Origin: an uncultured Gemmatimonadales bacterium
Lineage (GTDB): Bacteria; Gemmatimonadota; Gemmatimonadetes; Gemmatimonadales; GWC2-71-9
Assembly (NCBI GenBank): GCA_963695555.1
Contig: CAVOGR010000001.1
Span: 960,001-1,024,000 of the forward strand
Direction of reading: 5' to 3'
Length of the DNA stretch: 64,000 bases
The notes under the pieces: model-generated
The model's database searches: none
The model's input: the letters and a program-made list of their open reading frames with translations, nothing else
What the model was told of the DNA's origin: nothing
Program-made: the position numbers and the translations under genes
Shown here: positions 3,332 to 64,000 of the stretch, piece after piece
Position numbering within the stretch: position 1 is the stretch's first letter
Layout: the number at the start of each line of letters is the position of its first letter

Positions 3332-4754
3332 CAGTACTCCTCTTCGCAGCGTTCCGAAGACGCTCGAGGCTCGAATCGCGCCCCACCACGTACAGCAGAT
3401 CATTGACTGGCTCCGATACGGTCGATCCGGTGAGGGCAACCCGAATCGGTTGCATGACGTCTCCGAGCGTGAGCTCATTTGACTCGGCGACCCGTCGCAA
3501 GGTGTCGATGAGGTGTTCCGGCGTCCACTCGGCGGCGGATAGCTCCTGGAGCGCGGCGACGGCCAACCCAAGATTCGCGTCGAAGGCCGGGCCCATCTTG
3601 CCTTTGAGTTTCTCGGCCTTTTGGTCCGGCACGACCCGGCTCGGGTCCAGCCGGATGGCTATCTGCTCGGCCAGGTGCACCACCGTTCGGCTCCGCGTCT
3701 TCACGGCGTCGATCAATGGTAGCACGTCCGCGATGTCGGGCAGCTGCATACGCCCGAGCTCGCGCCGCACCGGTCCGACCAACTCCTCCGCGGGAAGCAT
3801 GGACAAGTATTGGCCGTTCATCCATTCCAGCTTGGTTGTGTCGAACACGGCCGGTTTCTTCTGAATGGACTCGAGCGAGAAGGCGTCGATCATCTCCCGT
3901 TCAGTGAGGATCTCCCGGTCGTCGCCCGGGGACCAGCCGAGCAGGGCGAGGAAGTTCCGCATGGCCTCCGGAAGGATCCCATGGTCCTGGTAGTCTCCGA
4001 CGGCGGTGGCACCGTGCCGCTTCGAGAGTTTCTTGCCGTCCGTGCCCAGGATCATGGGCACATGCGCAAACACCGGCGGCTCCCGGCCGAGTGCCCGGTA
4101 GAGCGCGATCTGTTTCGGGGTGTTGGAGATGTGATCGGCGCCACGGATAACGTGGGTGATCCCCATGTCGAGGTCGTCCGAGACCACGGCCAGGTTGTAG
4201 ATGGGAGATCCATCACTTCGAAGGATGACCAAATCGTCGAGGTCGCGTCCGTGAAAGCTGATCCGGCCGTGCACGGTATCGTCCCACGCCAGCTCCTCCT
4301 TCGGCATGAGAAACCGGATGGCGAACGGCGTGCCGGCGTCGATCTTGGCAGCGATCTCGGCATCGGACAAGGCATGGCAGCGGCGATCGTACGTGAATGG
4401 GGCCTTCTGCCGATCGGCTTTCTGCCTCTGCTCCGCCAGCTCGACCACCGAGCAGAAGCACCGATAGGCCTTCCCCTCGGTCAGGAGCTGGTGGGCGCGG
4501 GCTCGCTGCTGGTCGGAATAGTCGGCCTGGAAGAAGGGCCCCTCCTCCCACGTGACGCCGAGCCAAACGAGCCCGTCATGAATGACCTTGGTGTGCTCGT
4601 CGCTGCTTCGCGTCCGATCGGTGTCCTCGATGCGGAGGATGAAGGTGCCGCCGGTTTGCCGGACGAATAGCCAGTTGAACAACGCAGTACGCGCCCCGCC
4701 GACGTGGAGGTAGCCGGTGGGGGACGGTGCGAACCGGACGCGGGGTGCGGACAT
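3324..4754 (-). CDS. gltX: Glutamate--tRNA ligase
   Basis: RVRFAPSPTGYLHVGG (HIGH-like), LRIEDTD, KLSKR (KMSKS-like), anticodon-binding domain. Confidence 0.95.
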   Translation of the reverse strand: MSAPRVRFAPSPTGYLHVGGARTALFNWLFVRQTGGTFILRIEDTDRTRSSDEHTKVIHDGLVWLGVTWEEGPFFQADYSDQQRARAHQLLTEGKAYRCFCSVVELAEQRQKADRQKAPFTYDRRCHALSDAEIAAKIDAGTPFAIRFLMPKEELAWDDTVHGRISFHGRDLDDLVILRSDGSPIYNLAVVSDDLDMGITHVIRGADHISNTPKQIALYRALGREPPVFAHVPMILGTDGKKLSKRHGATAVGDYQDHGILPEAMRNFLALLGWSPGDDREILTEREMIDAFSLESIQKKPAVFDTTKLEWMNGQYLSMLPAEELVGPVRRELGRMQLPDIADVLPLIDAVKTRSRTVVHLAEQIAIRLDPSRVVPDQKAEKLKGKMGPAFDANLGLAVAALQELSAAEWTPEHLIDTLRRVAESNELTLGDVMQPIRVALTGSTVSEPVNDLLYVVGRDSSLERLRNAAKRSTDA

Positions 4755-4829
4755 GGATGGACGAATTTGGGAAGACCGGTGGCGGGAAAGGGTACGGTCC
4801 CGAGGGCCGGCTGGCACGTCGGGCGGAAA

Positions 4830-4919
4830 CGGAGCGGGAGGGATTCGAACCCTCGATAGGGGGATAAGCCCTATGCCGGTTTAGCAAACCGGTGCCTTCA
4901 GCCTCTCGGCCACCGCTCC
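4830..4919 (-). tRNA. tRNA-Ser(GCT)
   Basis: Reverse complement folds as cloverleaf: acceptor GGAGCGG/CCGCTCC, anticodon arm CCGGT-TTGCTAA-ACCGG, long variable arm, GTTCGAATC T-loop; CCA not encoded. Confidence 0.95.
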
Positions 4920-5002
4920 TCGGGACGTGGAAAGTGATCGCCCGGCCCGACCGGGGCAAGGTCTCTTGACCCAGCGTCATCGGTACCAATCACCCACCCT
5001 GT

Positions 5003-5036
5003 CACCAGGGCCGGCACTGCTGTGCCGGCCCTGGTG
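5003..5036. terminator. Perfect 15-bp hairpin downstream of the DUF4097-like gene
   Basis: CACCAGGGCCGGCAC-TGCT-GTGCCGGCCCTGGTG; no clear U-tract. Confidence 0.5.
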
Positions 5037-5066
5037 GATGCACGCGGGATGAACCGCCTTCGGGAC

Positions 5067-5870
5067 CTACCGTCGCTCGATGTGGACCCCGCCGTTGGTT
5101 GTCATCGCTCGGATCGGCGGGCCGCCGTCACCCAGCGTCACGGACAAGCGCTTCGTAAGCCGGCCCTGAACCATGACAGGGAAGTCGATCTCCAGCCCAC
5201 CGTTGGTGGTGCCGGTTTCCAGTCGGGCCGAGTAGCCGTCGGGCATTGTAAGGGAAACGCCGCCATTCCTGGTCTGGGCGTCCAACCCGGCGCCCTGCCA
5301 CCGCGAGCCGCTGAGCTCAATGTGGAGCCCTCCATTGGTCGTACGAGCGCGAACATCACCGCCGAGATTCCTGAGGTGGACACCGCCGTTTACCGTGGCG
5401 AGTGCCATCTTGCCGCGAACATCGCTCACCTCGACTCCGCCGTTCGTGGTTTCGAGGTCCAAGTCCTGACTGCGGGGTAGGTAGATCTCGTAACTCGCGG
5501 ACCAGTTTTCGTTGCGGCCGGTGGAGGGTCCCTTGGCGCGGATCGAGCCGCGGTCGGCCTCGATGCGGACCTCTGACGCAACCGCCCGGGCGCGCTCGTC
5601 GGTTCTCGCGTGGCCAACGACCACCACCCGAACGGCGATTTGGTCTCGGTCCCACCCCGAGACCTGGATTCCTCCGTTGGGACCCGCATCGACCTCGAGG
5701 CTGCCGGTCGGTGAGAGCGTCAGGTCCTTGACCAGACAATGCCGGCCCCGGTCGGCATTCCGCTCACGGCCCTCGCAGCTGGTTTGCCAATCTTGAGCGG
5801 TGGCTGGGGAAACCATGAGGGCGAGGAGTACTGCGATTGAGAGGCATGGAAGCACGTCATGTGACCGCAT
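5067..5870 (-). CDS. DUF4097/adhesin-like beta-strand repeat secreted protein
   Basis: Repeated TxNGG motifs, signal peptide, GGAGG RBS before ATG 5870. Confidence 0.8.
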   Translation of the reverse strand: MRSHDVLPCLSIAVLLALMVSPATAQDWQTSCEGRERNADRGRHCLVKDLTLSPTGSLEVDAGPNGGIQVSGWDRDQIAVRVVVVGHARTDERARAVASEVRIEADRGSIRAKGPSTGRNENWSASYEIYLPRSQDLDLETTNGGVEVSDVRGKMALATVNGGVHLRNLGGDVRARTTNGGLHIELSGSRWQGAGLDAQTRNGGVSLTMPDGYSARLETGTTNGGLEIDFPVMVQGRLTKRLSVTLGDGGPPIRAMTTNGGVHIERR

Positions 5871-5962
5871 GGGGACCGACCTCCGGGTCGAGAGAGCCAA
5901 CGAGGGCATCAGAGGGTTAGATGCCCCGGAGTGCCCGAGGGTTGTCATCGTGCGACGAGCGG

Positions 5963-6625
5963 TTAGTCGAAGATGTGGTGGGTCACGGCGTAGTGGATCA
6001 GCCCCGGGGTGGTGCTCACGCCCAGGATCTTCTTGATGCGCCTGCGATGGAACTCGATGGCCTTGACGGTCAATTCAAGCGCCTCAGCCGTCTCGGCAAT
6101 GGTAGAACCGAGGACCAGGTGATGGAGGACTTCCAGCTGCCGTTCGGTGAGACGAAGCCAGGGCTTCATCCGCACCTCCCCACCGGTCGTTTGCTGCATG
6201 TCGCTGCCGGGCGAATACGCCTTGAGTTTGTCCGCCATGGCCGGGTCCATGAAGGTCTCGCCCTCGAGCGCCTTCTCAATGGCCGTCAAAAGCACCTCGC
6301 GCGGCGAATGCTTGAGCACGAACCCTGCAGCCGAGGCGCGCATGGCCTCGAGAGCGAACAGGGCCTCATCGTGCATGGTGAGGATGATGACCTTGGTGGG
6401 AGACCCGAGCTTCTTCATGCGCCGGGCCACGTCGATGCCGCTCTGTCCGGGCATGGACACGTCCACCAGGGCCAGGTCGGGCTTCAGGCGTTCGATCTCG
6501 TCCAGCACCTGCGAGCCTTCGTGTACCATGGCGACGACGCGGTAGGTGGGCTCGAGCGCGCCGACCAAGCCTTCGCAGAACATCTTGTGGTCGTCGGCCA
6601 CCAGGACTCGAGGGTGGTAGATCAT
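5963..6625 (-). CDS. NarL/LuxR-family response regulator
   Basis: Receiver motifs ADDH, LVDVSMPG, LTMH, VLKH; C-terminal HTH LTERQLEVL...TVKAIEFHRRRI. Confidence 0.93.
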   Translation of the reverse strand: MIYHPRVLVADDHKMFCEGLVGALEPTYRVVAMVHEGSQVLDEIERLKPDLALVDVSMPGQSGIDVARRMKKLGSPTKVIILTMHDEALFALEAMRASAAGFVLKHSPREVLLTAIEKALEGETFMDPAMADKLKAYSPGSDMQQTTGGEVRMKPWLRLTERQLEVLHHLVLGSTIAETAEALELTVKAIEFHRRRIKKILGVSTTPGLIHYAVTHHIFD

Positions 6626-7398
6626 GGCCGCCTCTGAAGCGGCACCCAGGCCTCGACCCGGGTGCCCCGGTCGCGAGCCGGCATGACAGAAACCTGCCCG
6701 TTCACCAGGCGCGCCCGTTCCTTCATGCTGGTGATGCCGAGCCCGCCGGCACCCCGCTCCCAGTCCTCCGGCAGACCCCGTCCCTGGTCTTCCACCACGA
6801 GCCGAATACCCCCGTCCTGTTCCGTCATGGACAGGGAAGCGCGGTTGACCTGGGCGTGTTGGGCCACGTTCCGCAATGCCTCCTGGGCGATGCGGTAGAG
6901 ACTGGTGGTGAGAGCCTTGGGGAGGACGGTGGTCTTGTGTTTCATGTCGATGTTCACGTCCAGCTGGACGCCATCGGTACCGGTCATGTCCTGCGCCAAG
7001 GCCTCGAGCGCGGCTTCGAGCCCGAGATGGTCGAGCACGGCCGGGTGCATCCGCTGGGCGATGTTCCGGATGTCGTCGGCCAGATCGGCGACTTCTTCGC
7101 GGAGTTGGCCCACCCATCGGGCATAGGCCTCACGGTTCGGCGGGGGTGCCGTCCGCTTGCCGTCCAGTTCGCCGAGCAGCACGGCCACCCGCTGGAGCAC
7201 GTCGTCGTGGATTTCGCGGGCCACGAGGGCGCGTTCCTCCTCTTGGGCGGCGAGGAGGCGGTCGCTGAAGGCACGGACCGACGCCATATGCCGTCGCTGC
7301 TGCAGCATGACGGCGATGACGAACGCTACGACGACGATCGTAACGGTGCCGGCGGCGGCGAGATAGACCCACCAAATCTCAGGTACGACCGTCCGCAC
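6622..7398 (-). CDS. HisKA_3 sensor histidine kinase with a single TM and no sensor domain
   Basis: EEERALVAREIHDD H-box, QEALRNVAQHA N-box, DQGRG, GLGITSMKER; probable GTG start at 7398; 4-nt overlap with regulator. Confidence 0.88.
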   Translation of the reverse strand: MRTVVPEIWWVYLAAAGTVTIVVVAFVIAVMLQQRRHMASVRAFSDRLLAAQEEERALVAREIHDDVLQRVAVLLGELDGKRTAPPPNREAYARWVGQLREEVADLADDIRNIAQRMHPAVLDHLGLEAALEALAQDMTGTDGVQLDVNIDMKHKTTVLPKALTTSLYRIAQEALRNVAQHAQVNRASLSMTEQDGGIRLVVEDQGRGLPEDWERGAGGLGITSMKERARLVNGQVSVMPARDRGTRVEAWVPLQRRP

Positions 7399-8016
7399 AG
7401 AACCCCCAGGGTCAAGAGTGCGTATGCCAGGATATTGATGGCGGCCTTCACGTAGAACGTCGCCCGCAGAATACTCCATGGAGTTCGAGGCGAGGAGCAT
7501 GTCACTCACGGGATCCAGCACCACCCCGCTCCCGAAGTAGAGCAGCCACCCGATGCTGATCCAAAACCACGGGGCGGCCGCGGGGGTGCTGGACTTCCTG
7601 AGCCGGGTCACCAGGGTGTAGGCCGCGGCCACCAGGATGACGAGGGCCTGGAGCGGGGCGGTGAACCGGCTGAACTGCGACGAGATCCTCGACGCAACCC
7701 CGTCATGACGAGCCAGGCCACCACGTAGAGCCCCGCGGCGATGCGCATGGCATCCCGCGGGACGACTGCGGAGCTGCAGGTAGGAGAAGCTCCACAGGAT
7801 GAGCGCCGTGATCACCGGCAAGGCCGCGTGGATGATCCAGAGAGTCTGGCTGCCGCGCTTGCCGAGCCATGTCATGACCACGTCCAGCATGAACATGGTC
7901 AGCATGGTGACTGCGGTTAGCATAAGGGCGGCGGTACCGGCCGGCGGACGGCAAATATCGCCGCGAACGCGAGGAACTCGACGCCGAATGACCGCGTAGA
8001 TCAGTGCATCGCCCAC
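7326..8016 (-). CDS. Multi-pass (about 6-7 TM) membrane protein, putative receptor; frameshifted in this sequence
   Basis: Hydrophobic segments alternate between frames (FLAFAAIFAV; LTMFMLDVVM; LPVITALILWSF; IAAGLYVVAWLVM; LQALVILVAAAY; PWFWISIGWLLYFGSG; AAINILAYALLTLGVLC); last frame ends TAG at 7326. Confidence 0.7.
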
Positions 8017-8026
8017 AACTCGAGCC

Positions 8027-8481
8027 CTACTGGCCCAGATTGCCCGAACGCCTGCTACAAAAGGGCGGGCACGGCCTGCCCTTCTCGGCTATGGTCCCGT
8101 CCTCGAGATCGTTGCCCTTGGCTATCGACACCAACCACCACCAACGCCGGTGATCCGTCCGGGTTCATCCCCTGATAGATCCTGAGGCCGGCGACACCCG
8201 ACTCGCTCAGCACTTGGTCGAGCACCGCGCGGTCGAAGTACCCGGCAATGACCGTCCCCGGCGGATTCGCATTCGCGGAAGGCCCGGGTGAGCTCCGCCG
8301 CCTCGGGAGCCGACATGGCATGGAGGGCAACGGCCTCGGCACTCGGCGGCGCCATGCCCGCTTGCTGCGCCGGCTGCTCGGCACGGCAGCCGGCGAATAT
8401 CACGGCCATGCCTGCTACGAGGCCAGGAATAGCGAGCTCGGTGGAGCACTCGCGGTGTCGTGTGGTGAGCAGGTTGAACAT
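8027..8481 (-). CDS. Exported lipoprotein-like protein with C-terminal PCPPFC motif; two frameshifts (~8275, ~8116)
   Basis: GGAGG RBS, lipobox-like FAGC; joined frames read ...EAAELTRAFR/NANPPGTVIAGYFDRAVLDQVLSESGVAGLRIYQG...LVVVGVDSQG/NDLEDGTIAEKGRPCPPFCSRRSGNLGQ*. Confidence 0.72.
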
Positions 8482-8593
8482 TGGACACCTCCGCCGACGA
8501 AATGATGAACTCGTGCGGGTCTCGGTACTGTCGCGACCCAAACTGATGCACGATACCATTCTCAGGCTAATCGGGGAATACGATCGTTGGGCT

Positions 8594-8613
8594 GACTAGG
8601 GTTTTCCCTAGTC
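8594..8613. promoter_or_regulatory. Perfect palindromic operator GACTAGGG-TTTT-CCCTAGTC
   Basis: 8-4-8 inverted repeat 113 bp upstream of the PCPPFC gene; extended -10-like TGGTATCGT on minus strand at 8550-8558. Confidence 0.6.
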
Positions 8614-8692
8614 CTGATTTCGCCCGTTTTCGGCGAAGTTGAGCCAAGGTGACGCGACTGCTGGAGGACGATCGAACTCCTGACACTACGAA

Positions 8693-8780
8693 CGGCGTGG
8701 GTGAGATTCGAACTCACGGTACCCGGTTAGGGTACGGCGGTTTTCAAGACCGCTGCATTCAACCACTCTGCCACCACGCC
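8693..8780 (-). tRNA. tRNA-Ser(TGA)
   Basis: Acceptor GGCGTGG/CCACGCC, anticodon arm GCGGT-CTTGAAA-ACCGC, long variable arm, GTTCGAATC. Confidence 0.95.
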
Positions 8781-8914
8781 CTGACGTGGAAGGTAGCGAG
8801 CGGCCCGGGGCGGATACAAGCGAATAACCGGTTGGCGGCCTTGTCCCTCCCCGTCATTCGGCCGTATCTTGCCGCGCCGTGAAGCCCGGCCTTCCTCGCT
8901 CCGTATGGTCTGCC

Positions 8915-9802
8915 ATGATTCCGAGAGTGTCCCGAGTGATTGCGATGCTCGCGGGGCTTGGCAGCGTGGCCTGTGGTTCCAGCCCGGCCTCTGATGCCAT
9001 CCGAGCGGGACCCCTGCCCGTCGCGGTCAGCATCCTGCCCCAGAAGTACTTCGTGGATCGGATTGGCGGGCCGGCCGTCTCGGTGTCGGTGCTGATCGGT
9101 CCGGGTCAGAGTCCCGACACCTACGATCCGACGCCGCGCCAAATGGCCAGCCTTGCCGGCACCCAGATCTATTTCACGATGGGGTTGGAGTTCGAGGAGG
9201 CCTGGCTCGGCCGGATGCATGCGGCATATTCCGGCATGACCCTGGTCGACATGCGTCGAGGGATCGAGCTGTTGCCGTTGGATGAAGACTCGGATCCAGG
9301 CCATGAGGGTCGTCAGGATCCGCACGTGTGGATGAGTCCACGGCTGGTGGCCGTCATGGCTGGGACCATTCGGGACGCCCTGATCGAGGCGCTGCCCGAT
9401 CGCCGCGAGCTATTCGATCATAATTACCAGCGGTTCGTCCGCGACCTGAGCGCCGTCGATGGTGAGGTCCAAGGCCTCCTTCGTGACCTCCCGACCCGGA
9501 CGTTCATGGCGTTCCATCCGGCGTGGGCCTACTTCGCCGAGGAGTACGGACTGCACCAAGTCCCCATTGCGAGCCACGGGAAGGAGCCCGGCGCCCAAAC
9601 CCTGGCGCGCCTGATCCACCAGGCTCGAGTCGAGCATATCCGGGTGGTGCTAGTCCAAGCCCAATACAGCCAAGGCATGGCGAAGACCGTGGCACAGGCG
9701 GCGGGTGCCAGGGTGCTGATGCTCGATCCGCTGGCGGAGGATTATGTGAACAACGTGCGGCATGTGGCCGAGCGGCTGGCGGAGGCGTTGCGCGAATCAT
9801 GA
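8915..9802 (+). CDS. znuA: Zn/Mn ABC transporter substrate-binding lipoprotein (ZnuA/TroA family)
   Basis: Lipobox SVAC, YDPTP, DPHVWMSP, FHPAWAYF, DPLAEDY. Confidence 0.85.
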   Translation: MIPRVSRVIAMLAGLGSVACGSSPASDAIRAGPLPVAVSILPQKYFVDRIGGPAVSVSVLIGPGQSPDTYDPTPRQMASLAGTQIYFTMGLEFEEAWLGRMHAAYSGMTLVDMRRGIELLPLDEDSDPGHEGRQDPHVWMSPRLVAVMAGTIRDALIEALPDRRELFDHNYQRFVRDLSAVDGEVQGLLRDLPTRTFMAFHPAWAYFAEEYGLHQVPIASHGKEPGAQTLARLIHQARVEHIRVVLVQAQYSQGMAKTVAQAAGARVLMLDPLAEDYVNNVRHVAERLAEALRES

Positions 9803-10533
9803 GTGCCGCGATCGAGCTCGAGCGGGTGTCGTTCAGCTACGGCGGGCCCCTGGTTCTGGAAGACATCGATCTCACCGTCGAAGAGGGCGAGTTCCTTGGC
9901 CTGGTGGGTCCCAATGCCAGCGGCAAGAGCACGTTGCTCAAGGTCATGCTCGGTCTCTTCCGGCCCACCGCGGGCCGAGTGCGGGTGTTCGGCCGCGATC
10001 CGGTAGACGGGCGCCACGCCATCGGCTACGTGCCCCAGTTCGCGACGTTCCGGCGGGACTTCCCGATCCTGGTTCGAGACATGGTGCTCCTGGGGCGGCT
10101 CGGCGCCACGCGGGTGCTGGGCGGCTATCGAGCGGCAGATCACGCCGCCGCCGAGCTCGCCATGCGTGAGGCCCAGGTCTGGGACGTCCGAGCCAACCCG
10201 ATCGGGATGCTCTCGGGCGGTCAGCTGCAGCGGGCGCTGGTGGCGCGGGCTCTGGTCTCGAATCCCAAGATCCTCATTCTCGATGAACCGACCTCGAACA
10301 TCGATGTGTTGGCGGAGGCCGACATTTTCACATTATTCCGGACGCTCAATGAGCGCATGACGATCGTTGTGGTGTCTCATGACGTCGGGTTCATCACCCA
10401 GTACGTGCATCGCGTGGCCTGCTTGAACCGGACCTTGGTGTGCCACCCCACCGGCGCCATCACCGGCGAGGTCATCGCCCAGTTGTACGGCACGCCGGTG
10501 CGGCTCATCGACCACGGCCATGACCACTCATAG
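9799..10533 (+). CDS. znuC: Metal ABC transporter ATP-binding protein
   Basis: GPNASGKST, LSGGQ, ILDEP, VSHD; His-rich tail; ATGA overlap. Confidence 0.88.
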   Translation: MSAAIELERVSFSYGGPLVLEDIDLTVEEGEFLGLVGPNASGKSTLLKVMLGLFRPTAGRVRVFGRDPVDGRHAIGYVPQFATFRRDFPILVRDMVLLGRLGATRVLGGYRAADHAAAELAMREAQVWDVRANPIGMLSGGQLQRALVARALVSNPKILILDEPTSNIDVLAEADIFTLFRTLNERMTIVVVSHDVGFITQYVHRVACLNRTLVCHPTGAITGEVIAQLYGTPVRLIDHGHDHS

Positions 10534-13738: not shown

Positions 13739-15166
13739 TCACCCCTTGATCACGCCCAGTGGCGTAAGCCTGGCCACCTTCCGAGCTAGGCCAGCCCGGT
13801 GGACCACATCGACCACCCGATCCACATCCTTGTATGCCAAGGGCGCCTCCTCGGCGAGCCCGCTCTTTGAGGCACAACGGACGACGATGCCGCGGGATTC
13901 AAGCTCACGGCGGACTTGGGCCCCTGTAACCGTGCGCTTGGCCGCCCCCCTGCTCATCGCACGGCCGGCGCCATGGCAGCAGCTGCCGAAACTGCGTTCG
14001 CCGGAGGTATCGGCACCGGCAAGGACGTAGGAGGCCGTCCCCATGCTGCCTGGAATAAAGACCGGCTGCCCGTGGGCCCGATACCGGTCCGGCGTCTCGG
14101 GAGAGGCCGGCCCGAATGCGCGCGTCGCTCCCTTCCGATGCACACACAGCTCCTCGCCGTCGTAGACCTCGAGCTTGGCGATATTGTGGGCCACATCGTA
14201 GACGAGGCGGGGGCGGTGCGCCTCGCCAAACACCCGGGCAAAGACCTCGCGGACGTAATGGGTAATCACTTGCCGGTTGACCCAGGCAAAGTTGGCGGCG
14301 GCGCACATCGCCCCGAAATAGCGCGCGCCCTCCGGCGAGTCGAGCGGGGCCGACGCCAGCTGCCGGTCGGGAAGGTGGATGCCATAGCGCTCCATCACTT
14401 GGTCCATTAACCGGACGTGGTCCGTGCAGACCTGGTGGCCCAACCCTCGCGAGCCGGTATGAATCAGTACGGTGAGCCGTCCATCAGTCAGGCCGTATGC
14501 CTCGGCGGCCGCGTCGTCGAATACCTGGTCCACCTGCTGTACTTCCACGAAGTGGTTGCCCGACCCGATCGTCCCGAGTTGATCGTGCCCGCGCGTCTTT
14601 GCCTTGGCGGAGACCGCGTCCGAATCAGCGGCCGCGAGGCAGCCTGTCGCTTCGGTGACGGCCAGGTCGTCTGGCGTGGCCAGCTCTCGCTCGACCAGAT
14701 AGCGGCAGCCCTCCGTCAGCACCCGGTCCAGCTCATCCGGGCCAAGTGAGAAGCGGGGATTTCGCCCCGGGCCCGACGGGATGCTCCGGCTCAGTTGGTG
14801 AACGACGGTCTCCAGGCGCCCGCCGGCACTCTCGGCGGTGAGTTCCGTGGCGAGGAGCCGGACGCCGCAATTGATGTCATAGCCCACCCCGCCGGGAGAG
14901 ATGACGCCATCGCGTACTCGGGTGGCCGCGACCCCGCCGACGGGGAAACCATAGCCCTGGTGGACATCCGGCATGGCGTAGACATAGCCCGTGACGCCCG
15001 GCAACGTGGCGACGTTCACCAACTGCTCGATCGATTGGTCCTTGGAAATTTGATCCCACAGCGCGGAGTCGGCATAAATCCGGGCCGGGACCCGCATGTC
15101 CGCTCGTGCTGTCCGCGGGATTTCGAACATCCACCCGCTTTGTCGTACTGCCTGGTAGTCAGGCAT
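13739..15166 (-). CDS. rtcB: RtcB family RNA ligase
   Basis: MPDVHQGYGFPVG, GYDINCG, GSGNHF, HTGSRG, HNIAK, HRKGATRA, PGSMG, HGAGR, EEAPLAYKD. Confidence 0.95.
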   Translation of the reverse strand: MPDYQAVRQSGWMFEIPRTARADMRVPARIYADSALWDQISKDQSIEQLVNVATLPGVTGYVYAMPDVHQGYGFPVGGVAATRVRDGVISPGGVGYDINCGVRLLATELTAESAGGRLETVVHQLSRSIPSGPGRNPRFSLGPDELDRVLTEGCRYLVERELATPDDLAVTEATGCLAAADSDAVSAKAKTRGHDQLGTIGSGNHFVEVQQVDQVFDDAAAEAYGLTDGRLTVLIHTGSRGLGHQVCTDHVRLMDQVMERYGIHLPDRQLASAPLDSPEGARYFGAMCAAANFAWVNRQVITHYVREVFARVFGEAHRPRLVYDVAHNIAKLEVYDGEELCVHRKGATRAFGPASPETPDRYRAHGQPVFIPGSMGTASYVLAGADTSGERSFGSCCHGAGRAMSRGAAKRTVTGAQVRRELESRGIVVRCASKSGLAEEAPLAYKDVDRVVDVVHRAGLARKVARLTPLGVIKG

Positions 15167-15177
15167 AGCGAATCATT

Positions 15178-15630
15178 TCATACGTCCAGGAGAAGATGGG
15201 CCTCGAGGGCGCCGTCCGTCTCCTCGAGCCTTGCTCCGTGATGCGTGGCTGCTTTCACCAGACTCGGTGACGTGCCGAGTGCTCTACCCCGCAAGCGAGC
15301 AAGGAGATAGGTGTGGGTGGCCTCGATCACATCGAACTCGAGCGGCATCCACTGCTCAGATTCGGCCAGGTAAATCAACTCATTGAGCCAGTCGACCAGC
15401 AGGGCCACGGCATCCGGAGAGCACACTTCGATCTCGCGCCAGGGCCCAGTCGCTTCCGGAAGCGGCTCACCCAGGGTGAGGCTGGCCAGCGCGCGCCCTG
15501 CTTCTCCGGCCACGTCGGCCAAGGAACCACCGTAGACCAACAGGTGGGCTTCGGAAGGGTGATCAACGAATCGGTGCCTCGGCGCGGCACGGTGTGGAGC
15601 GGGGACGGGTTGCTGTGAGGCTTCTGACAT
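15178..15630 (-). CDS. Archease (RtcB activator)
   Basis: DHPSE (cf. DHTAD), LLVDWLNELIY, VKAATHH, C-terminal LDV; directly upstream of rtcB; start 15630 or 15654. Confidence 0.85.
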   Translation of the reverse strand: MSEASQQPVPAPHRAAPRHRFVDHPSEAHLLVYGGSLADVAGEAGRALASLTLGEPLPEATGPWREIEVCSPDAVALLVDWLNELIYLAESEQWMPLEFDVIEATHTYLLARLRGRALGTSPSLVKAATHHGARLEETDGALEAHLLLDV

Positions 15631-15831
15631 GACCTCGTCGTCGAGCAGGACCACGGGTGGAGCAGGGACCCACGCACCTCGACCTCAAGATACGCCGGTC
15701 GAATCACGGTAACGAGGTGCAGACACTGCGGCCGTATCTGGAAGATGGGGATCGGCGATGGAAGCAGGCTTGATCCAACAATGAAAGTTGCTTCAAGGTG
15801 GGCGGCAAGGGTCGCCCAGACCTCATGGGTT

Positions 15832-62659: not shown

Positions 62660-64000
62660 ATGGCGTTACCCGCACCATCCCCCGACCTCGTATGGCATCG
62701 GGTTCTGGACCACGATGAGCTCGCCGAGGGCAGGGTCAAACCCGTGACCTGCGCGCGGCAAACCGTGTGCATGACGCGCCATGAGGGGCAGTACGCCGCG
62801 CTGGACAATCGATGTCCGCATCAAGGCGGTCCACTCGGCGAAGGATCGATCGAAAATGGCTGGCTCAGATGTCCGTGGCACGGGTGGGATTACGATCCGC
62901 TGACGGGCAAGCCACCGGGCGGATACTCCGACGGTGTCGCGACGTACCCGGTCGAGGTTCGAGAGGACGGCATCTACGTCGGGTTCTACGAGGAGCGCCC
63001 CCACGCGCGAACGGTCTCCGATGTCATGGCCGAAACGATGGTTGCGTGGGGCATCACGACCGTCTGGGGAATGGTGGGGCATTCCAATTTGGGCCTGGCG
63101 GACGCATTGCGACGCCTCGAGCAGGCCGGACAGCTACGCTACATCGGAATTCGTCATGAAGGTGCGGCATCATTTGCGGCCTCGGCCTATGGGAAGCTCA
63201 CGGGAAAGCTCGCAGCCTGCCTGTCGATCGCAGGCCCCGGGGCCACCAACCTGCTCACCGGGCTCTGGGATGCGAACGTCGATCGCGCTCCCGTGCTGGC
63301 ACTGACGGGGCAAGTCGACACGCAAGTCCTCGGGCCCGGGGCATTCCAGGAAGTCGACCTGGCGGCAGCGTTCGGGAAGGTGGCGCAGTGGAGCCAGCCT
63401 GCGCTGCCATACCAGCAAGCACGCTGAGCTGGTGAACCTGGCCTGCAAGAGCGCGCTGCTCAATCGCGGCGTGTCGCACCTCATCTTTCCCGACGAAGTG
63501 CAGAACGCCGCGGCGCCGGCCGCCGCCGGCTCGCCTCGGGGTCGCCTGACCGCTCGCACGATCGCGCCGCCCGCGGAGGCGACCGATCAGGCGGTCACCC
63601 TGCTCGGAATCGTCCAAGCGACCGGTGATCATCGTGGGCCACGGGGCACGCTTCCACATGCCCGAGGTCATCGCACTGGCCGAGCAGATCCACGCACCGG
63701 TGATTACGACCTTCAAAGCGAAGGGACTCATTCCCGATCGCCACCCGCTGGCCTGCGGTGTGCTCGGCCGGAGCGGCACGCCGATCGCGAGTTGGTTCAT
63801 GAATGAGAGTGACTGCCTGCTCGTGTTCGGCGCGAGCTTCAGCAACCACACCGGGATCACGCCCAAGAAGCCGACCATCCAAGTGGATTTCGATCCCATG
63901 GCGCTGGGCAAGTTCCACGCAGTGGACGTTCCCGTGTGGGGCGAAATCGGCATTACGGCCGCGATACTCCAGAATCGTCTGACGCGCGGCGCCGATCGGG
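62660..64000 (+). CDS. Rieske [2Fe-2S]-fused thiamine-diphosphate enzyme (pyruvate oxidase-like); frameshifts ~63410 and ~63612; 3' truncated
   Basis: CPHQGGPL...CPWHG; RHEGAASFAA, GPGATN; later frames NLACK...PDEVQ and RPVIIVGHG...TTFKAKG. Confidence 0.85.

Follow-up and report, generated by a model that had tools for sequence, protein, structure and literature searches.

We describe here a four-gene cassette on the minus strand of a 64,000-nucleotide stretch of DNA from an uncultured Gemmatimonadales bacterium (GCA_963695555.1, contig CAVOGR010000001.1, positions 960,001 to 1,024,000), called the window throughout. Tightly packed and read in the same direction are genes for a small lipoprotein (G1), a seven-helix membrane protein (G2), a histidine kinase without a sensing domain and a NarL/LuxR-type response regulator. 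The cassette is a widespread and undescribed accessory input module for single-pass signalling proteins. On balance we favour a model in which G1 and G2 would form a detachable sensor that drives the single-pass output protein through an intramembrane contact, in the manner of SaePQRS or LiaFSR.

G1 (8027..8481) runs from an ATG at 8481 to a stop codon at 8029-8027. The window copy is broken by indels and passes through three reading frames; after repair it encodes 149 residues. A genus-specific signal peptide (8386..8481), with the lipobox FAGC at 8397-8386 and its cysteine (Cys32) at 8388-8386, precedes a conserved domain of ~95 residues, at the end of which stands a Cys-x3-Cys motif, PCPPFC (8057..8074), that is near-invariant in the family alignment. 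G2 (7326..8016) has ~230 residues, holds PWFWISIGWLLYFG and carries about six single-base indels in the window. Its tail overlaps the start of the kinase gene by 73 nt in a different frame (7326..7398), compared with 82 nt in the related locus L032 and 85 nt in L015. The kinase gene (6622..7398) starts with a GTG at 7398 and encodes 258 residues beginning MRTVVPEIWW (MRTVVPEIWWVYLAAAGTVTIVVVAFVIAVMLQQRRH...), with ~8 residues outside, one membrane helix (EIWW...QQRRH), HisKA_3 from residue 55, and HATPase_c. Its stop codon overlaps by 4 nt (ATGA) with the start of the gene for the 220-residue regulator (5963..6625). These coordinates bear out the preliminary description of the locus, made from the letters of the window, which had proposed four co-oriented and tightly packed or overlapping genes.

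The kinase matches the Pfam families HisKA_3 (30.6 bits, cut-off 24) and HATPase_c (45.7 bits, cut-off 26.4), as does an intact relative, and these were the only domains found, in agreement with the earlier reading of a kinase with one membrane helix and no sensing domain. The regulator matches Response_reg (85.3 bits, cut-off 30.2; E = 4e-24) and GerE (34 bits, cut-off 23.5; E = 2e-8). By their domains the two are a two-component system of a HisKA_3 kinase and a NarL/LuxR regulator, and with its minimal extracytoplasmic part and no other input domain the kinase would be of the intramembrane-sensing type.

Linkage of the four genes and a conserved helix on the output proteins

The close relatives of the window genome carry the label Gemmatimonadales in the public record. 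A six-frame search of 61 related genomes located G1 in 22, and G2 is present in these 22 and in none of the others. In loci of the same order, G2 lies after G1 in 19 of 20, and the kinase and regulator genes come next in all 17 that have contig room, so that the predicted four-gene linkage is conserved and G2 adjoins the kinase as an accessory membrane protein of the same operon, the arrangement that marks Sae/Lia-type systems.

Wider loci were collected with a degenerate DNA pattern (VGVD, 16 residues, PCPPxC) from one genome per species, and 80 of at least 120 stretches were examined. A local profile found the G1 domain in all 80. They come from Bacteroidota (among others Pontibacter, Chryseobacterium, Chitinophagaceae and Saprospiraceae; loci L033 and L064 belong to the culturable Pontibacter qinzhouensis and a Chryseobacterium sp.), where the preliminary description had placed similar clusters, and from Ignavibacteriota, Gemmatimonadota and Calditrichota, with single loci under the labels Eisenbacteria, Glassbacteria, Chromatiales and Synechococcus. 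Seventy-four of the loci leave 750 nt or more for it after G1, and in 70 of these G2 comes next and is co-oriented with G1 (median spacing between the matches 23 nt); the remaining four have a gap of G2 size that the G2 profile does not match. Of the 54 loci with room for it, 47 have a kinase core in the 3 kb downstream. Of the others, one has its kinase at 3.1 kb, one has a kinase-regulator pair upstream, one encodes a PAS-GerE protein, and four (L042, L045, L096 and L112) have no kinase; at least three of these four encode instead a short protein made of the helix and a PAS-like part. All-against-all clustering of open reading frames (ORFs) from the 80 loci revealed no other widely shared neighbour, and no peptidase, ABC exporter or modifying enzyme/prenyl transferase is found among the conserved neighbours of the cassette.

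The proteins encoded after G2 have a common N-terminus. In 67 of 69 loci this gene opens with a short stub, one strongly hydrophobic helix and a basic motif such as QQRR; the helix is often of the form x-I/F-W-W...G-T/S and mostly begins 0-30 nt past the end of the G2 match. The outputs behind it range from HisKA_3, PAS-HisKA and hybrid kinases to a PAS-GerE protein (L076) and proteins of 164-184 residues that consist of the helix and a PAS-like part. Gemmatimonadota kinases have HisKA_3 only, and elsewhere PAS-HisKA, PAS-GAF-PAS-HisKA_3 or receiver hybrids occur. Since G1, G2 and this specific helix are constant and the outputs are interchangeable, the pair would be an input module and the helix the adaptor that reads G2.

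Some loci vary this layout. The membrane-anchored PAS-GerE protein of L076 (L076:6923-7807), which has the same N-terminal helix and no kinase, is a one-component version. Modules are also often amplified, as G2 tandems of two or three, G1 tandems of two or three and two-domain G1 fusions (L025, L035, L066, L079, L100; L108, L109; L022, L023). In loci of the Ignavibacteria type (L050, L077, L104, L108, L109) an ORF of 510-615 residues converges on a hybrid kinase gene, and the cluster to which it belongs is present in 15 loci.

The G1 and G2 families

Neither G1 nor G2 falls into a Pfam or NCBIfam family (E up to 1, chance-level rows aside), a profile search against solved structures gave no relative of either, and their nearest clusters in the Protein Atlas are all labelled "hypothetical protein". 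Searches for fused forms scored no longer protein carrying G1 or G2, which is weak evidence. The G1 family is large and spans at least five phyla, with 1368 representatives of 50%-identity clusters at E ≤ 0.001 in a profile search and 478 at 1e-10. Its members share ~95 residues. In 99 aligned members H54 (82%), R100 (99%), Y102 (99%) and D124 (97%) are conserved, and so are C137 (99%), P138 (100%), P139 (86%) and C141 (97%) of the Cys motif, which, and not a leader, is the most conserved part of the protein. The supposed conservation of PCPPxC is thereby borne out, and CP..C is present in 150 of 156 collected G1 proteins. Fifty-four of the 156 are of two-domain size; two CxxxC motifs are found in 25 of these, one in another 25 and none in 4. 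Together, the conserved His, Arg, Tyr and Asp and the Cys-x3-Cys motif suggest a small binding or redox site.

A model of a 149-residue homologue of G1 has a mean predicted local distance difference test (pLDDT) score of 85.5, with a core above 90, and shows helices and then a small sheet, whose last strand leads directly into the Cys turn. No credible fold relative was found: the best Foldseek match had an E value of 0.17, and the best match in a wide VIA search, a CopG protein (Z 3.5, root-mean-square deviation (rmsd) 5.2 Å over 60 residues), is insignificant. A literature search on the PCPPxC motif gave no paper on the G1 family; its matches were conopeptides and chance letters such as the polyphosphate probe PPXc.

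G2 had been taken for a separate protein with six or seven transmembrane (TM) helices, and is indeed modelled with seven (pLDDT 92) and a disordered 25-residue tail. Bacterial 7TM receptor domains are known, such as 7TMR-DISM and similar ones, and no Pfam match of G2 to the curated 7TM input-domain families was obtained. Its structure neighbours in the Atlas, the N-terminal membrane parts of a GGDEF protein cluster and of a histidine kinase cluster (TM 0.64-0.65), are a lead only. The K/R bias of all 73 homologues puts the N-terminus outside and the C-terminus inside; a flip of G2 that follows the compartment of G1 is ruled out by this uniform bias. Conserved are P16, N58, R87, W101, F150, W151 and C206, and no catalytic pattern and no conserved His/Cys pair is evident.

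In contrast to this constant topology, the compartment of G1 varies. Bacterial lipoproteins have a signal peptide that ends in a lipobox, L-(A/S/V)-(G/A)-C; that of the window copy, FAGC, follows a basic and a hydrophobic stretch, as judged by eye and by a simple pattern. A 42-residue lipoprotein signal is present only in the window's genus, where it is probably real because three diverged versions (FAAC, LAGC, VAGC) all retain its basic, hydrophobic and lipobox parts. Gemmatimonadales outside the genus have the same G2, kinase and regulator, but there G1 begins right at the domain. Across the 80 wider loci a hydrophobic stretch lies upstream of 35 of 90 G1 domains, mostly in Bacteroidota, with sites of the form A-x-A followed by Q-Y/F-T-G.

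These features bear on the proposal, made in the preliminary description, that G1 or its Cys-ring tail is an exported autoinducer-like signal, perhaps matured, exported or read by G2, which would then control the kinase. In the agr and comQXPA systems the gene for a small protein stands together with those for a membrane or modifying protein, a kinase and a regulator, ComP and ComA being of the HisKA_3 and NarL types, and the gene set of the cassette outlines the same plan. Export signals on G1 in this genus and in many Bacteroidota would suit such a role, as would the almost invariant CPPxC; the letters PCPPFC also occur in a conopeptide that is "single-disulfide" according to the title of its report (PMC9409646). 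In addition, the stretch 7867-8061 (the G1 tail, the spacer and the first ~50 codons of G2) is swapped for a diverged sequence of similar length in contigs of related strains from two studies, and may be a locally fast-evolving segment. G1 is, however, conserved across its whole domain, with a confident fold and with the Cys motif as its best-kept part, whereas the precursors of agr and comQXPA are short and variable; it has no leader with a variable core. Fifty-five of the 90 domains have no export signal, among them almost all those from Gemmatimonadales outside the genus in which G2, the kinase and the regulator are the same, and two-domain fusions are frequent, with about half of them keeping only one CxxxC. 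No peptidase, exporter or modifying enzyme is conserved nearby, although G2 itself, which has no conserved catalytic His/Cys pair, may have such an activity, and the kinase has one helix where those of agr and comQXPA have multi-helix peptide receptors. A secreted Cys-ring precursor of the agr/com type is therefore very unlikely.

Frame breaks in the window copy and flanking genes

Set against four genomes of the genus, the window carries one surplus base near each of 8273, 8119, 7993, 7767, 7697, 7682 and 7469 and lacks one base near 8460 and one near 7931; G1 contains a further extra base near 8435. G2 is affected by the extra bases at 7993, 7767, 7697, 7682 and 7469 and by the missing one at 7931. 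Short-read contigs from three studies, belonging to relatives with ~85-95% identity, omit one base at 7469, 7682, 7694, 7767, 8123, 8272/3 and 8435, and show no indel between 5900 and 7400, a stretch that they span; the sequencing runs that match this DNA are those of relatives only (shares 0.16 or less). The indels do not lie in homopolymers, and eight of ten are insertions.

Two single-base shifts in G1 had been noticed before, and intact relatives agree that they are extra bases near 8273 and 8119-8123. A compensating pair, the base missing near 8460 and the extra one near 8435, had been overlooked; it scrambles eight signal-peptide residues. When the middle frame piece of G1 was used as query, seven homologues were found, five of which (four of 149 residues and one of 150) read straight through. 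In the intact homologues a basic start and a hydrophobic stretch lead up to the lipobox (FAAC or LAGC), and GLRIY or GVRVY, VVVGVD and RPCPPFC come after it; the window copy carries FAGC, LRIY and PCPPFC, as expected of the ~150-residue lipobox protein that had been proposed. G1 is in one piece in the same-genus genomes G001, G003 and G004, each of which has hundreds of contigs, and in three pieces in the window genome and in G002, the other few-contig genome of the genus.

The 464-residue ORF that the ORF track shows at 6622..8016 on the minus strand is an artefact that joins G2 to the kinase; its Pfam matches, HisKA_3 and HATPase_c, lie in its final 200 residues, and the G1 pieces match no Pfam family. 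The artefact arises because the extra base at 7469 shifts G2 into the kinase frame, which happens to be open. In the intact relatives L032 and L015, G2 is an ORF of its own (231-232 residues) and the kinase lies in another frame, with its GTG placed 5-7 nt after GGAGG; the two are different ORFs also in 17 further loci of the order. A true fusion is topologically impossible, the C-terminus of G2 being inside and the N-terminus of the kinase outside. The gene models of the preliminary description, which had held that the ORF track splits the first gene and fuses the second and third, are thus correct, and the case is a caution for gene calling, since indels concealed one gene and fused two others.

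Most likely these indels are assembly errors, in which case G1 and G2 are probably intact in the organism. The alternative is that both are real pseudogenes in this genome, their indels being true mutations, and that only the kinase and the regulator still work. The indels are confined to G1 and G2, with gltX, the kinase, the regulator and the toastrack gene next to it intact, the inserted bases lie outside homopolymers, and G002 is also broken in these genes, all of which would fit such decay. A predominance of insertions is nevertheless unlike natural decay, and substitutions between G004 and the window fall on the three codon positions as 11:8:38 in G1 and 21:10:38 at the 5' end of G2, a third-position excess that indicates genes under selection. 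Frame repair leaves every conserved residue in place, and intact copies are present in the three short-read-like genomes of the genus. The assembly (3.57 Mb in 14 contigs, 87% complete, with the window on contig C1) has frame breaks elsewhere as well: in the gene for a TPP enzyme (Rieske-TPP enzyme, 62684-63999, plus strand) the frame changes near 63415 and 63622, so that TPP_enzyme_N ends in one frame and TPP_enzyme_M starts in another. We consider it improbable that G1 and G2 are pseudogenes here.

The G002 locus (L014, G002:C10:276000-286692) has eight or nine extra bases of its own in G1 and G2, at other places than in the window. Frame breaks are found in its kinase and toastrack genes too, despite a completeness of 98%.

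Upstream of G1 lies a tRNA-Ser(TGA) gene (8693-8780), and beyond it, on the opposite strand, are genes for a ZnuA-type metal-binding protein and an ABC ATPase (8879-10533, plus strand). An exported toastrack (DUF4097) protein is encoded 15 nt past the regulator on the same strand (5067-5948, minus strand). It was considered as a fifth member of the cassette and rejected, since just two genomes of the genus have it beside the cassette and none of the 80 wider loci has it. In the interval 4500-9500, a scan gave no promoter-like sites and five terminator-like sites, each within coding sequence, and an Rfam scan gave two tRNAs and nothing else. Farther away (13745-15654, minus strand), an archease gene (Pfam, 2.5e-18) stands directly after a 471-residue ORF on the same strand, which may encode the RNA ligase RtcB.

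Proposed mechanism and relation to known systems

By our comparison the closest architecture is that of saePQRS, with LiaFSR/VraTSR also close. According to two reports (PMC3748130, PMC5083920), SaePQRS of Staphylococcus aureus comprises the lipoprotein SaeP, the membrane protein SaeQ, an intramembrane-sensing kinase and a regulator, and its auxiliaries act on the kinase. The cassette resembles this system in being a four-gene operon of a lipoprotein, a membrane protein, a kinase of the intramembrane-sensing type and a regulator. It differs in having no sequence relation to SaePQRS, a seven-helix G2, a one-helix HisKA_3 kinase and a NarL-type regulator; furthermore, G1 has no export signal in most lineages, and the module occurs in Gemmatimonadota, Bacteroidota and Ignavibacteriota, not in Firmicutes.

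LiaF is an accessory membrane protein described in one report as a negative regulator (PMC3543457). With LiaFSR/VraTSR the cassette shares a HisKA_3 kinase that scarcely extends outside the membrane, and next to it a regulator of the NarL type and an accessory membrane protein. G2, however, is not LiaF, as it matches no family, and Lia systems are not known to have a small partner with a Cys motif. LiaS has two helices, whereas the kinase here has one and scores 59 bits against the NCBIfam model of LiaS, far under the cut-off of 450. Pfam and NCBIfam searches at E up to 1 and the profile search against solved structures found no homology of G1 or G2 to SaeP, SaeQ or LiaF.

In UhpABC, the stand-alone membrane sensor UhpC signals to the HisKA_3-type kinase UhpB and the NarL-type regulator UhpA, a likeness to the separate membrane protein, kinase and regulator of the cassette. 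UhpC is a transporter homologue and UhpB has a multi-helix domain of its own, whereas the seven-helix G2 belongs to no known family and the kinase here has only one helix; the core of this kinase scores 111 bits against the NCBIfam model of UhpB, under the cut-off of 408. From these comparisons the cassette appears to work like Sae/Lia-type systems but belongs to none of their families.

We infer the following course of events, including both protein contacts, the direction of the signal and its chemical nature. G2, with its N-terminus outside and its C-terminus inside, and G1, a small folded protein with conserved His, Arg, Tyr and Asp and a Cys-Pro-Pro-x-Cys turn, would form the sensor. The state of G2 would pass to the single helix of the kinase by contact within the membrane, and the kinase would phosphorylate the NarL-type regulator and so change transcription. 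The kinase has no other means of sensing, and G2, tuned by G1, is therefore proposed to set its state; the idea of the preliminary description that a stand-alone membrane protein works with a sensor-less kinase fits the data. In the genus with the lipoprotein signal, G1 would act from the periplasmic face. Its part is most likely to modulate or tune G2, and with its His and Cys-x3-Cys site it may report a thiol-reactive cue (a soft metal or the redox state). Such a cue is a guess suggested by the conserved residues, and a doubtful one at best.

Several observations weigh against this model. The compartment of G1 varies (55 of 90 domains have no upstream hydrophobic stretch) and the topology of G2 is constant, so G1 cannot always meet the same face of G2, which argues against a simple picture with a ligand outside. 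One locus with a tandem or two-domain G1, L023, has no G2 nearby. The helix arrangement of G2 is like that of G protein-coupled receptors (GPCRs), rhodopsins and designed GPCR-like folds (VIA Z 10-14, rmsd ~4 Å over ~200 residues), a match that is generic for helical bundles and in a Z range that can mean a common helix arrangement. The case for a thiol or metal cue consists of conserved residues, the best fold match of G1 being insignificant. In the window, moreover, about ten indels fall within 1.15 kb, compared with roughly one per 10-40 kb elsewhere on the contig by a crude frame tracker that over-calls (one of four window candidates was verified), and the related, long-read-like genome G002 has its own indel set in the same genes.

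The changing compartment of G1 also leaves room for a different reading, in which G1 and G2 are not the input but a regulated output, as liaIH is for LiaRS; they could, for example, be a protection pair against thiol or metal stress encoded upstream of its own regulators. Both genes stand first in the operon, a protein found in either compartment suits protection better than it suits a fixed receptor partner, and the His and Cys-x3-Cys site is conserved. Yet what accompanies G1-G2 throughout is not a kinase as such but one specific membrane helix, which is also attached to non-kinase outputs, the kinase has no sensing domain of its own, and the reading frames of G2 and the kinase overlap. We judge a regulated effector pair unlikely and retain the sensor module as the preferred model.

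A bolder form of the sensor model is possible, though we hold it only tentatively. G2 would be a true bacterial seven-helix receptor that signals sideways in the membrane, through one conserved W-W helix, to interchangeable single-pass outputs (kinase, hybrid kinase, PAS-LuxR regulator or PAS-only protein). G1 would be a co-sensor for thiols or metals that has changed sides between cytoplasm and periplasm in the course of evolution of the lineages that carry it. If true, this would be a plug-and-play receptor/adaptor system across Bacteroidota, Ignavibacteriota and Gemmatimonadota, unlike any two-component input domain described so far.

A kinase without a sensor depends on partners, and the few partner families known come mostly from Firmicutes. 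The G1-G2 pair, large and without a Pfam or NCBIfam name, offers a testable module for how a signal may cross the membrane without a classical sensor domain, and it would give a name to many "hypothetical" genes in bacteria of soil, sediment and freshwater.

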